Shown here piece after piece: positions 16,634-38,327 of a stretch of 64,000 nt of DNA. The DNA is from Escherichia coli (GTDB lineage Bacteria > Pseudomonadota > Gammaproteobacteria > Enterobacterales > Enterobacteriaceae). The DNA lies in NCBI RefSeq assembly GCF_003790525.1, contig NZ_CP033636.1; one strand, written 5' to 3'. A program made the translations under genes and the position numbers. The notes beneath the pieces were generated by a model. That model saw nothing but the letters and a program-made list of their open reading frames with translations, was not told where the DNA came from and did not search any database. Every line of letters begins with the position of its first letter. Position 1 is the stretch's first letter.

Positions 16634-17104
16634 ATGACCAAATATTATGATCGCAGTGGAATTGAAATCTCCAGCGCAAAAATCCGCTGTGTTGATTCTG
16701 TAAAAGGTACTGCGGAATATACTTTTCGTATTCTTTGCGATAAATGCAATGGTCGGGGAGAGCGTAAGCATTTTTATAGAAGTCGCTGTATGGCTTGTAA
16801 AGCCACGGGTTACAGCCTCGAAACGACCCGCACTGCTTACACGCTGAATGCGCTGTACCGCATTAATGCTCAAGCTGCCCGCAAAGTGTCAGCATCCTTG
16901 CAAAACGAGCGTTTGAGGACTGAAAACGCCCACAACTCTGCGTTCAATGCATGGTGCAGATCTCATCAAAAAATGGTTGATGCAATCACCCAGCAATCCA
17001 GCAGTAATAATTTTCTGGAAAGCCTTAAGTCTTCTTTAACCCACCAGCGTCAGTTAAGTGATAAGCAGCTGGCAGTCGCCGCCCGCATTTTAGGGATTCA
17101 TTAA
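16634..17104 (+). CDS. hypothetical protein with CxxC...CxxC zinc-ribbon-like motif
   Basis: 156-aa ORF with RBS ggagg; CDKCNGRG...CMACKATG cysteine pairs; immediately upstream of the HigB-like gene. Confidence 0.5.
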   Translation: MTKYYDRSGIEISSAKIRCVDSVKGTAEYTFRILCDKCNGRGERKHFYRSRCMACKATGYSLETTRTAYTLNALYRINAQAARKVSASLQNERLRTENAHNSAFNAWCRSHQKMVDAITQQSSSNNFLESLKSSLTHQRQLSDKQLAVAARILGIH

Positions 17105-34847: not shown

Positions 34848-35129
34848 ATGAAAATCAGCCAGCTGGAATCCGGGATGCAGGTTTGGTCTGTAACCCGTAC
34901 CAAAATGGGAAATACCACCATTACAACGGTCATTGTCCACCCCGTTGTCATTATAGAAATTCATGATAATCATGTGATTGCTCGCTGGAACGGCAATGCA
35001 CCACGTCGTTTTGGAGAAACGGCTATCAGGGGCTGGAAGAAGGAGAAGCCCCTGCTTGTCCGTGAACCTTTCGGAAATGCTCGCCTGGCCACCCGGGCTG
35101 AAAAAGCCGCTATGCAGGAAAAAGAGTAA
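34848..35129 (+). CDS. hypothetical protein
   Basis: 93-aa ORF; preceded by inverted repeat gcgccaca / tgtggcgc and a tataat. Confidence 0.4.
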   Translation: MKISQLESGMQVWSVTRTKMGNTTITTVIVHPVVIIEIHDNHVIARWNGNAPRRFGETAIRGWKKEKPLLVREPFGNARLATRAEKAAMQEKE

Positions 35130-35344: not shown

Positions 35345-35950
35345 ATGACTGAATTAAATAAAAGCCCGTCCGGTTTTTCCGGAGCTGATGTCAGTAAAGA
35401 ACAGGCTGCCATAAGGGCACTTGTAGAAAGAGTAGTGACCAACTATCGCAGCCGGACAGCACCTGATCGGGTTCAAAAGGCTTCGGTAGCGTTTAATGGG
35501 GGATTAATCCTGACCCTGATGCTGGCCTTGTCGCTATTGGGCTACCTTGTGGCGGAATTGTTCAGGGGGTATGTTGCGGATAGTTCACCCTATGTGCCTG
35601 GTCTAAGTTATTCGCAATTTTCGATGCTGATGATCGTTGAGCTGTGTCTATGCTTTCTCGCATGGTTTTTGGTTGTCACAGGGGACTATCCCCGGCCGTG
35701 GATATTTCAGGTAGTCCCGATGGAGCAGTACTGGTTCTTTGACGAAGTGGATGACGACGATCTTGCCCGGCTTTCCTGTAACCCTTACATCAAGCGCTGG
35801 CTACTTGATGAAATGTCCGGTATTCATCGACTGACCTACACGAGGCTGCATGATCGACTGGAGCGCATCTGTAATATTCCATCCCATCTCGAATACAGCC
35901 GTATTCAGGCACATAAGCTTTCCCTAATCAACGGAACCAGTGCCTCCTGA
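35345..35950 (+). CDS. hypothetical membrane protein
   Basis: 201-aa ORF with RBS aacaggag and two or more hydrophobic helices. Confidence 0.45.
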   Translation: MTELNKSPSGFSGADVSKEQAAIRALVERVVTNYRSRTAPDRVQKASVAFNGGLILTLMLALSLLGYLVAELFRGYVADSSPYVPGLSYSQFSMLMIVELCLCFLAWFLVVTGDYPRPWIFQVVPMEQYWFFDEVDDDDLARLSCNPYIKRWLLDEMSGIHRLTYTRLHDRLERICNIPSHLEYSRIQAHKLSLINGTSAS

Positions 35951-36282
35951 TCCTACCATTGCATCCGGAAATTAAACGGGCAGGAACTGCACTGTATGTT
36001 CCGACCAAGCAGCTGCCCGTTACCCTTTTCTTTAGTGTAAAAAGACTGTCTCCGACAACCGGAAGTGACTCATGTCAAATAAATTATAAATCAATGATTT
36101 ATGCAGGCAGGGTGTTTGGCTGATCAGGGCAGAGTGATATAATGACGCTGGTGCTGGAGGCTTTTGCCCCAGCCAGCGGTAACACTGTTTGACTGTGGTA
36201 AAAGCAGAAAGCCCCGAGTAATTTTTCAATTAACCTGTACTGCACCCATTTTGTTGGACGATGAAATGGAATAGCCCCTGAT

Positions 36283-36804
36283 ATGTCAAAGCCAAAATAC
36301 CCTTTTGAAAAGCGCCTTGAAGTCGTGAATCACTACTTCACTACTGATGATGGTTACAGGATCATCTCGGCACGTTTTGGTGTCCCCCGAACCCAGGTCA
36401 GGACATGGGTTGCCCTCTATGAAAAACATGGAGAAAAAGGTTTAATTCCCAAACCTAAAGGTGTTAGTGCTGATCCTGAGTTGCGTATTAAGGTCGTGAA
36501 AGCGGTGATCGAGCAGCACATGTCCCTTAATCAGGCTGCTGCTCACTTTATGCTTGCTGGTAGTGGTTCTGTAGCCAGGTGGCTGAAGGTTTATGAAGAG
36601 CGCGGAGAAGCTGGTTTACGCGCGCTCAAGATTGGCACCAAAAGAAACATTGCAATATCAGTTGATCCAGAAAAAGCGGCATCAGCATTGGAGCTGTCAA
36701 AAGACCGACGCATTGAGGATCTTGAAAGGCAAGTTCGATTTCTTGAAACGCGGCTTGTGTATCTAAAAAAGCTGAAAGCCTTAGCTCATCCCACGAAAAA
36801 GTGA
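36283..36804 (+). CDS. insJ: IS150 transposase OrfA
   Basis: 173-aa ORF MSKPKYPFEKRLEVVNHYFTTDDGYRIISARFGVPRTQVRTWV, recognised as IS150 InsJ. Confidence 0.9.
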   Translation: MSKPKYPFEKRLEVVNHYFTTDDGYRIISARFGVPRTQVRTWVALYEKHGEKGLIPKPKGVSADPELRIKVVKAVIEQHMSLNQAAAHFMLAGSGSVARWLKVYEERGEAGLRALKIGTKRNIAISVDPEKAASALELSKDRRIEDLERQVRFLETRLVYLKKLKALAHPTKK

Positions 36805-37652
36805 AAGTACTCAACGAGCTAAGGCAGTTTTATCCTCTTGATGAGCTTCTCAGGGCTGCGGAGATACCGCGCAGTACGTTTTATTACCATCTAAAGGCTC
36901 TCAGCAAGCCTGACAAGTATGCGGACGTTAAAAAGCGTATTGGTGAGATTTATCATGAGAATAGAGGCCGATACGGATACCGTAGGGTAACGCTGTCTCT
37001 TCATCGAGAAGGGAAACAGATTAACCATAAAGCTGTTCAGCGCCTGATGGGAATCCTCTCACTGAAGGCAGCGATTAAGGTCAAGCGATACCGCTCTTAC
37101 AGAGGAGAGGTAGGGCAAACCGCCCCCAATGTTCTCCAAAGAGATTTCAAGGCTACGCGGCCAAACGAGAAGTGGGTTACCGATGTTACTGAATTTGCAG
37201 TCAATGGGCGCAAGCTGTATTTGTCTCCAGTAATAGATCTCTTCAACAACGAAGTTATTTCTTACAGCCTTTCGGAAAGACCAGTGATGAACATGGTCGA
37301 GAATATGCTCGATCAGGCATTCAAAAAGCTTAATCCTCACGAGCATCCTGTTCTGCACTCTGACCAGGGATGGCAGTATCGTATGAGAAGATATCAAAAT
37401 ATCCTTAAAGAACATGGTATTAAACAAAGCATGTCCAGAAAAGGCAATTGTCTGGATAATGCTGTGGTGGAGTGTTTCTTTGGAACCTTAAAGTCGGAGT
37501 GTTTTTATCTTGATGAGTTCAGTAATATAAGCGAGCTGAAGGATGCTGTTACGGAATATATTGAATACTACAACAGCAGAAGAATTAGCCTGAAATTAAA
37601 AGGTCTGACTCCAATTGAATATCGGAATCAGACCTATATGCCTCGTGTTTAA
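36801..37652 (+). CDS. insK: IS150 transposase OrfB (DDE domain)
   Basis: 283-aa ORF overlapping orfA in the -1 frame, typical IS3-family arrangement. Confidence 0.9.
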
Positions 37653-37681
37653 CTGTCCAACTTTCTGGGGTCAGTACAACC

Positions 37682-37760
37682 CGAGGCCCCTGTATGCTAG
37701 TCACACACAGCGTAGCCTCTTGCCTGCTTAAATGCAAGGAGAAGAAGGCCATGAAAATGC
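37682..37760 (-). ncRNA. sok: candidate Sok antisense RNA region
   Basis: by analogy with plasmid hok/sok loci the antisense RNA lies opposite the leader ORF start; not verified here by promoter or terminator. Confidence 0.2.
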
Positions 37761-37909
37761 CGAACCAACCCATTGTTTTGTGCATATTAATAGTTTGTTT
37801 AACGCTGTTGATATTCACCTGGCTCACACGAAACTCGCTTTGCGAGTTGCGGATGAAAGACGGAACAAGGGAGGTATTTGCTATCCTGGCCTACGAATCC
37901 GGTAAGTAG
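37751..37909 (+). CDS. hok: Hok/Gef-family type I toxin
   Basis: 52-aa product [52 protein letters not shown] closely resembles plasmid Hok; RBS caaggagaag; an in-frame leader ORF starts at 37694. Confidence 0.85.
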
Positions 37910-37915
37910 CTGACA

Positions 37916-37943
37916 AAGAGGGGGGCAACCCCCCTCTTTTCAG
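37916..37943 (+). terminator. rho-independent terminator after hok
   Basis: perfect stem agagggggg / cccccctct with loop caa, then ttttc. Confidence 0.6.
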
Positions 37944-37978
37944 GGTGTGGATTAGTATGCCATCGGCACCTTTTGAAA

Positions 37979-38009
37979 GGGTTCCTCTAAAGCGGAGGAA
38001 CCCTTTTTT
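37979..38009 (+). terminator. second rho-independent terminator
   Basis: perfect stem gggttcctc / gaggaaccc, then tttttt. Confidence 0.6.
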
Positions 38010-38327
38010 CTTTTAGTGAAAAGATTGTGGTTAGTAACGTTATGCAGGGTAAGCGTTCATATCAGCGGGCCACCAGCCATCTTTCATTCCCATCATGAAA
38101 TTGCGGTTCATTGTGCCCACAAACACTCAGCTGGGCACCGTTCCGCTTCATGCAGGTCCGGTGCATCTTCATTTTCAGACGCTAAGCTGATCGGGGTGCA
38201 TCGTGGAGCAGTGATGCCAGAGGGAGAAATTGCAACCGTGAAATCAAAACTTATCATTCGGCTACCGGGCAGTGGTACTCACCTGGCAGAGCATGTATTT
38301 ATATCCGGGCCTGGCTGATGCAGCCCT

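Follow-up and report, generated by a model that had tools for sequence, protein, structure and literature searches.

What becomes of a hok/sok toxin-antitoxin locus when an insertion sequence (IS) sits within the leader of its toxin mRNA, and how did the element come to be there? We addressed these questions with a 64,000-nucleotide stretch of an Escherichia coli plasmid (contig NZ_CP033636.1; hereafter the window), which contains one copy of IS150 and one hok gene. Over the flanks of the element and the surrounding 24 kb, the sequence is 100% identical to conjugative plasmids of the IncHI2/IncHI2A type from E. coli, Salmonella, Klebsiella and Raoultella. We find that IS150 divides the hok leader and, as far as homology indicates, the sok antitoxin gene as well, that the interrupted allele is common in its plasmid lineage and lies at a recurrent target, and that the killing module is probably disabled.

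A complete IS150 divides a hok/sok locus

An earlier note, made from the letters of the window, had proposed that a complete IS150 with a 3-bp acc duplication splits a hok/sok-type locus and had suggested rejoining the flanks as a check. We deleted IS150 together with one ACC, fusing 35900-36235 to 37682-38100, and the resulting 755 bp form a contiguous hok leader that is 100% identical, in a single piece, to real uninterrupted loci such as those of NZ_CP022165.1 (pM160133_p1) and CP070398.1. Chance or an assembly artefact is excluded because the same junctions recur in hundreds of independent assemblies. The Rfam sok/hok-leader family (RF01794, gathering score 59 bits) gives two half-matches in the window, one of 46.7 bits (36149-36235 plus a chance extension) and one of 34.4 bits (about 37679-37753). 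Both fall below the threshold, and the whole 64-kb window has no match to any Rfam family at or above the gathering score. With 81.1 bits, the uninterrupted allele gives the exact sum of the two halves. The locus in the window is a disrupted member of the hok/sok type I toxin-antitoxin family.

The element itself is intact. Its length of 1443 bp and its imperfect terminal inverted repeats beginning TGTACTG are those of IS150, and the ACC found on both sides, together with the empty site in sister plasmids, agrees with the 3-bp (occasionally 4-bp) duplication made by this element. The outer ends read TGTACTGCACCC... on the left and ...GGGGTCAGTACA on the right, and the 31-nt inverted repeats (left, 36236-36266; right, 37648-37678) are 71% complementary. 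Two overlapping open reading frames (ORFs) and a slippery heptamer give the arrangement of a DDE transposase made by -1 frameshifting; orfB scores 348 bits with an NCBIfam IS3 transposase model, and on sister plasmids the identical copy has a RefSeq entry for an IS150 transposase whose frameshift is programmed. The window copy is 100% identical to IncHI2 plasmid copies, 98.8% identical to the usual chromosomal IS150 of E. coli and 94.4% identical to the related element ISKpn8; the K-12 ends are nearly the same, with one mismatch across the last 100 nt.

The hok transcription unit lies on both sides of IS150

Upstream of the element lie the promoter and the initial 86 nt of the leader, where the earlier note had placed an extended -10 promoter and the 5' leader. 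The -10 region TGATATAAT is present at 36135-36143, and the promoter lies 7 nt ahead of the start of the Rfam hok-leader match. The mRNA starts at about 36150. The upstream part of the leader includes a tac-like 5'-end element that pairs with the 3' end, as well as an upstream hairpin. Downstream of IS150 stand the remainder of the leader, mok-like and hok reading frames and two terminator hairpins, again as the note had it, and the toxin is separated from its native promoter and 5' elements. The range given in that note, 36138-37943, covers the unit from the -10 box to the first hairpin and falls short of the full locus, which extends from about 36116 to 38013.

When rejoined, the 415-nt hok mRNA has a computed fold with a z-score of -8.9 relative to shuffled controls. 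In this predicted fold the first 8 nt (36150-36157) pair with 37963-37970, just ahead of the terminal hairpin, which is the 5'-3' fold-back expected of hok mRNAs. The downstream part of the leader contains the Sok-target region, an upstream ATG at 37694 and the hok ribosome-binding region. The toxin belongs to the Hok/Gef family and is 69% identical to R1 Hok. The overlapping mok-like frame is less regular: it matches the NCBIfam Mok model NF010277 over positions 14-70 of 71 with 54.6 bits, under the cut-off of 110. The upstream ATG is 57 nt from the hok ATG rather than the 58 nt of R1/F-type loci, so that it shares the frame of hok rather than that of mok; a start there would yield a 71-aa extended Hok, and the mok frame is without a start before 37732. 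The shifted ATG is also present in uninterrupted IncHI2 alleles and is a property of the allele, not of the IS. This IncHI2 hok variant may thus not use a normal mok.

The GC hairpin that follows hok (GGGGGGCAACCCCCC, 37915-37939) is itself occupied in many sister IncHI2 plasmids by IS421, an IS186-like element. In one such locus (L001, 5035-6371) the overlapping pieces meet at window positions 37921-37933. The chromosomal hokE and hokC loci carry IS186/IS421 at the equivalent place after hok, giving the same IS150-hok-IS421 architecture, and the published IS186 target GGGG(N6)CCCC fits the IS421 site in this hairpin (PMC5009759).

The insertion also divides the predicted sok gene

The earlier note had considered the toxin mRNA and had missed the split of sok. 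IS150 lies between ...AAUUAACC and CGAGGC, which is the basal part of the Sok terminator stem (the Sok 5' arm). We placed the sok promoter by positional homology, with R1/F-type loci (the R1/F locus of L017 in an alignment) and the annotated sokE as guides; the predicted hexamers score under the threshold of a consensus scan. The predicted Sok start at about 37703 would leave approximately 22 nt to be transcribed before IS150 is reached, and the remaining terminator hairpin and U tract would be orphaned on the far side of the element. Because the homologous IS150 site in hokE falls within the annotated 60-nt sokE RNA, about 31 nt from its 5' end, IS150 evidently splits the antitoxin gene as well as the hok leader.

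A Sok transcript running into IS150 would meet its first terminator-like site on the minus strand at 37601-37635, an antisense hairpin in the right end of the element that is retained in ISKpn8 despite several substitutions, through G-U pairs and compensatory changes. The predicted chimeric Sok is 112 nt long, with a 16-nt free 5' tail, a GCCUCG/CGAGGC stem re-formed with IS sequence, and a terminal 15-bp hairpin followed by a U tract; its computed fold has a z-score of -5.8. In IS150 and ISKpn8 alike, the right end includes CACGAGGC, an inverted copy of the target CGAGGC situated 32-39 nt from the tip. We also observed that the subterminal box TGCCTCGTGTTTAACTGTCCAAC, which includes the inverted CGAGGC, is the same in IS150 and ISKpn8 (region 37601-37678, compared in L002, L012 and L014).

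Features of the interrupted hok/sok locus in the window
Feature	Positions	Strand	Basis and remarks
hok promoter	36116-36143	+	TTGGCT 36116-36121, 16-nt spacer, TGaTATAAT; 10/12 consensus positions plus extended TG
hok leader, 5' part	36150-36235 (86 nt)	+	RF01794 model positions 1 to ~82; now severed from hok
Orphaned 3' part of sok (remaining terminator hairpin and U tract)	36197-36235	-	Predicted from fold of rejoined Sok; Rfam consensus hairpin
Target-site duplication ACC, left copy	36233-36235		Sequence flanking IS150
IS150, complete	36236-37678 (1443 bp)	+	Boundaries, inverted repeats, duplication, RefSeq annotation, transposase model
orfA/insJ	36283-36804	+	Open, 173 aa, intact
Frameshift slippery heptamer A AAA AAG	36765-36771	+	Sequence
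orfB/insK	36801-37652	+	Open, 283 aa, intact; overlaps orfA
Antisense hairpin in IS150 right end	37601-37635	-	15-bp stem then U-rich tract, terminator-like; putative function
Target-site duplication ACC, right copy	37679-37681		Flanking sequence; CGAGGC (37682-37687) directly next
sok promoter and 5' part of sok RNA	37682-37737	-	Putative; -35 TTGCAT 37737-37732, -10 TACGCT 37715-37710
hok leader, 3' part	37682-37750	+	RF01794 positions ~83-157; contiguous with 36235 in uninterrupted plasmids
mok-like overlapping ORF (DUF5431)	37732-37905	+	Canonical N-terminus absent; RefSeq: partial DUF5431 protein
hok toxin gene	37751-37909	+	52 aa; NF007279 122.8 bits (cut-off 73); PF01848 E = 7e-18
First 3' hairpin with T tract	37915-37939	+	AAAGAGGGGGG-CAA-CCCCCCTCTTT; intact in window
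Fold-back element	37963-37970	+	Predicted, fold of rejoined mRNA
hok mRNA terminator	37975-38013 (hairpin 37975-38007)	+	14-bp stem plus T run

The interrupted allele is widespread among IncHI2 plasmids

To estimate prevalence, we compared a 160-nt probe spanning the empty site with plasmid sequences and inspected 60 rows spaced evenly through the 1344 ranked records. This allele is split at the IS150 site in about 20 of the 60 rows and intact in 5, corresponding by this sampling to approximately 450 interrupted and 110 intact records, so that roughly 80% of this plasmid lineage has the interrupted form. In the same sample the Enterobacter-type IncHI2 lineage accounts for about 11 split and 9 intact rows. 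The interrupted allele is inherited and widespread, and these sampling estimates show it to be in the majority and well tolerated. One study describes an mcr-1 IncHI2 plasmid, which may or may not carry the interrupted allele, as very stable and credits this to parAB and hipAB (PMC6306219). Typing of 'addiction systems' in IncHI2 plasmids by polymerase chain reaction (PMC4855149) is uninformative here, since it cannot detect this hok variant.

Upstream of the locus, a 93-aa ORF (34848-35129, corresponding to 1949-2230 of L004) has the PLSDB label 'Brucella suis mprF, 100% identity, peptide antibiotic resistance'. For a hypothetical plasmid protein of that size the label looks spurious.

IS150 and ISKpn8 share a recurrent target in hok/sok loci

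In the second, Enterobacter-type IncHI2 lineage, whose flanks are about 95% identical to those in the window, an element is present at the identical nucleotide with the same ACC and in the same orientation. That element is ISKpn8, copies of which at least 99.9% identical to it are carried by unrelated Klebsiella and Enterobacter IncF plasmids, and the second lineage also has alleles free of any IS whose flanks are almost the same (5 mismatches in 1336 nt). Because of these two observations, we take the IS150 and ISKpn8 copies of the two lineages to be independent insertions; the IncHI2 hok/sok site is a hotspot for both elements.

We then examined ten further plasmid copies of IS150 or ISKpn8, picked blind to context except for one (H162) whose match already had a DUF5431 gene listed beneath it. 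Every one of them is located in a hok/sok leader, and its transposase points to hok; the plasmids were IncFII(K), IncFIB/HI1B, IncI2 R721, several IncF and a Shigella plasmid. Among four chromosomal copies also sampled, hokE accounts for one and hokB for two, and the fourth is at a non-hok site. A hokC insertion reported at REL606 position 16,972 (PMC5419217) maps to ...ATCAACC/CGAGGC (here and below the slash marks the right-hand limit of the duplicated sequence), and the coordinates given in the same paper for hokE and mokB insertions did not match those genes when placed on REL606. Altogether the same few nucleotides have been struck in hokB, hokC, hokE and four other plasmid hok loci.

Disruption of hok/sok by IS150 has been published before. 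IS150 disrupts sokE in more than 400 isolates (PMC11551753) and sokA in K-12, according to the citation of Pedersen & Gerdes 1999 in PMC11551753 and in agreement with RefSeq annotation; ten events in mutation-accumulation lines mark the region between trg and mokB as an IS150 hotspot (PMC5289635), and experimental evolution has yielded IS150 insertions in the hokC, hokE and mokB leaders (PMC5419217). Literature searches on IS150 with hokB or sokB, and on IncHI2 with hok and IS150, found no report. With sokA, sokE and hokB already described, what is new here is a further example on an epidemic plasmid family, and the IncHI2 locus adds plasmid cases to a pattern so far described on chromosomes.

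Other elements strike the same small locus. An ISNCY-family element annotated as ISEsa1 is located at or just after the hok start codon in Enterobacter-type IncHI2 plasmids (L002, 5853 onward; L003, 4407 onward); it occurs with or without ISKpn8 upstream and is a third kind of IS at this locus. ISKpn28, which is IS481-like, is found in or beside the hok leaders of Klebsiella plasmids (hits H64, H205 and H245) and replaces hok downstream of ISKpn8 in L013 (1975-2443).

A candidate target motif

Collapsing the examined IS150 and ISKpn8 copies gave 11 independent events, nine of which have YGRGGC directly after the duplication on the right-end side. The two IncHI2 events, one by IS150 and one by ISKpn8, read ACC/CGAGGC; the other sites are CCC/TGGGGC in hokE, CCCA/CGAGGC in IncFII(K), ACA/CGAGGC in IncFIB/HI1B, CCA/CGAGGC in IncF (R1 type), AAC/CGAGGC in hokB, CGCT/TGAGGC at a hok mRNA 5' end (L021) and GAA/TGAGGC at a non-hok site (L145, NZ_CP195442.1 2034391-2036533). 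The two exceptions are R721, where the insertion is 3 nt further from the motif, and L020, where it is in the hairpin loop. IS150 positions from the long-term evolution experiment (PMC11101190 Table 1) point the same way: when placed on REL606, three of five have TGAGGC or CGAGGC on one strand, ending at offset -1. At the non-hok positions 4110237, 3015771 and 3697154 the hexamer comes straight after the duplication on the right-end side. A motif expected about once per kb per strand is very unlikely to match three of five positions by chance. That insertions outside hok have TGAGGC or CGAGGC at the same offset suggests a general IS150 target motif.

The motif alone does not explain the site, as the window has 50 YGAGGC sites and its single IS150 sits at the hok/sok one; the preference must therefore also owe something to the hairpin, to local transcription or to survival. 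A flank survey with a 15-nt IS150 right-end pattern on genome contigs returned, among the matches listed, mostly Streptococcus and chance matches. The rule of a duplication followed by YGAGGC was not found in the searchable literature and may be described in papers beyond that reach; IS150 insertion preferences are mentioned only in passing, in one paper (PMC10379815). Such a rule would explain why IS150 repeatedly lands in hok/sok and would make IS150 and ISKpn8 sites predictable.

Two other accounts of the shared position were considered. A single ancient insertion common to both IncHI2 lineages, with uninterrupted copies produced by precise excision and no hotspot at all, would fit the identical site, duplication and orientation, and the 5.6% difference between the elements is what co-divergence with flanks differing by about 5% might give. 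We reject it as scarcely credible: the second element has its near-identical copies elsewhere, both lineages retain uninterrupted alleles, and the target is shared with other hok loci. Insertion at random, with the clustering due to survival only because this position is harmless or beneficial and insertions elsewhere are lost, has in its favour that events abolishing Sok with hok active would be lethal and would escape notice, and that inactivation of a toxin locus may be mildly beneficial (argued in PMC5419217). Against this, the hokB site was struck repeatedly in mutation-accumulation lines, in which selection is minimal (PMC5289635), the non-hok events share YGAGGC at the same offset, no insertion was seen inside the hok ORF where it should be equally harmless, and the orientation is uniform in all 11 events examined. 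We regard survival by itself as a very unlikely explanation.

Consequences for post-segregational killing

We consider it likely that IS150 disables the post-segregational killing module of these IncHI2 plasmids, that any residual hok expression is still covered by an altered Sok, and that the allele has been inherited and has spread with an epidemic lineage. An intact IS150 would have transposed into a preferred target, a 3-bp duplication followed by CGAGGC, on the IncHI2 backbone; with this target in the stem of the Sok terminator hairpin and 86 nt into the hok mRNA, a single insertion would break both genes. The hok mRNA would be cut off from its promoter and from the 5' elements controlling how it folds and is later activated. 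The sok gene would be left without its own terminator hairpin, though still with a promoter and about 22 nt of 5' recognition sequence. A residual hok transcript leaving IS150 would still be met by the altered Sok. With the killing module disabled, the plasmid would depend on its other stability functions, and the interrupted allele would have travelled with the IncHI2 lineage. What the sequences show is the anatomy, the empty site, the recurrence of the target and the prevalence of the allele, and what we infer is loss of killing, a chimeric Sok and the levels of expression; the module is probably disabled, and the suggestion of the earlier note that the insertion silences or deregulates hok seems reasonable. 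Chromosomal hok loci interrupted by an IS are likewise considered inactive (Pedersen & Gerdes 1999, cited by PMC11551753).

Several observations weigh against a simple loss of function. IS150 is co-oriented with hok, and a terminator scan found no plus-strand terminator-like site from 36150 to 37915, neither of which the earlier note had remarked upon, just as it had not recognised an inherited, common allele at a recurrent target. The native hok promoter could therefore read through IS150, or an outward promoter could act: a weak one at the IS150 3' end has been reported to give modest downstream transcription (PMC11101190), and 150-bp IS150 ends had no detectable promoter activity in another study (PMC12095673). 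Low-level hok transcription is thus possible. The hok ORF and downstream elements are undecayed and identical to those of intact alleles, which would be expected equally from a recent insertion or from retained function. Finally, one study found a phenotypic difference between sokE::IS150 and sokE+ strains (PMC11551753), indicating that such insertions are not always neutral.

A rival reading is that the module still works, with read-through from the hok promoter or from IS150 giving a long mRNA that keeps its 5' and 3' pairing elements, with a Sok ending inside IS150 as its repressor, and with killing retained or weakened. The shared orientation and the lack of a plus-strand terminator-like site would permit such an mRNA, both partners of the 5'-3' pairing are present, the predicted chimeric Sok keeps a free tail, a re-formed stem and a terminal hairpin with U tract, and the toxin ORF shows no decay. 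Control of R1 hok/sok depends on ordered co-transcriptional folding of the mRNA, however, and a translated insert of 1.4 kb between the paired leader elements would disturb that order. Together with the view of IS-bearing chromosomal loci as inactive, this leads us to think a working module improbable, and we favour its disablement by IS150.

The recurrence of the target invites a further, more speculative proposal, which we hold to be possible though doubtful: that IS150-group elements (IS150 and ISKpn8) are in effect hok/sok-homing, recognising a 3-4 bp duplication followed by YGAGGC in a conserved functional part of hok leaders, and that the IS end may rescue Sok. The target would be found both in the stem of the Sok terminator and at the 5' end of the hok mRNA, and the right-end CACGAGGC and antisense U-tract hairpin could supply a truncated Sok with a replacement stem and terminator, such that insertion would decapitate the toxin mRNA yet keep the antitoxin. 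If so, toxin-antitoxin loci would be safe harbours in which an IS is carried on conjugative plasmids. The wider lead from this locus is the pattern itself: plasmid copies of IS150 and ISKpn8 almost exclusively in hok leaders, a candidate rule based on YGAGGC, and an IS end that may rescue Sok. More immediately, IncHI2 plasmids are major carriers of mcr, extended-spectrum beta-lactamase and metal-resistance genes, and a broken hok/sok in most of one IncHI2 lineage matters for models of plasmid stability and for any plan that would exploit the toxin.

Comparison with known systems

A close counterpart is sokE::IS150/hokE of E. coli B and many natural isolates (L010, L011 and L146), where IS150 lies in the 3' arm (in the sense of hok) of the Sok terminator hairpin, co-oriented with hok, and a 3-bp duplication is followed by YGRGGC. 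IS421/IS186 is frequent just after hokE, as it is in sister IncHI2 plasmids, and the window plasmid is without IS421. The hokE locus differs in being chromosomal and a different hok paralogue, and its insertion point is shifted by 1 nt. In hokA/sokA::IS150 of K-12 the element likewise parts the hok leader and promoter from mok/hok near the equivalent hairpin, but that copy (L005, 1134-2612) is inverted relative to hok and has no target duplication. The K-12 leader also lacks the stretch from the hairpin to the hok ribosome-binding site, and the locus was probably altered by rearrangement or deletion after insertion, rather than by a simple insertion. The trg/mokB (hokB/sokB) hotspot of E. coli B resembles the IncHI2 site in its recurrent independent IS150 insertions in a hok leader (PMC5289635, PMC5419217), although those events are chromosomal and occurred in the laboratory; in natural isolates hokB has IS150 at the homologous hairpin, co-oriented with hok.

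The rejoined locus resembles R1 hok/sok and F flm in its promoter, structured leader, antisense sok position, Hok protein, fold-back pairing and terminal hairpin, and differs in the spacing of the upstream ATG and in the interruption of the locus in the window. Among insertion sequences, IS1397 and ISKpn1 are IS3-family elements that insert into repetitive extragenic palindromic (REP) sequences. Like them, IS150 belongs to the IS3 family and strongly favours a short, conserved sequence that can form a hairpin, but the common denominator of its targets is a hexamer beside the right end, which is also present at non-hairpin sites.

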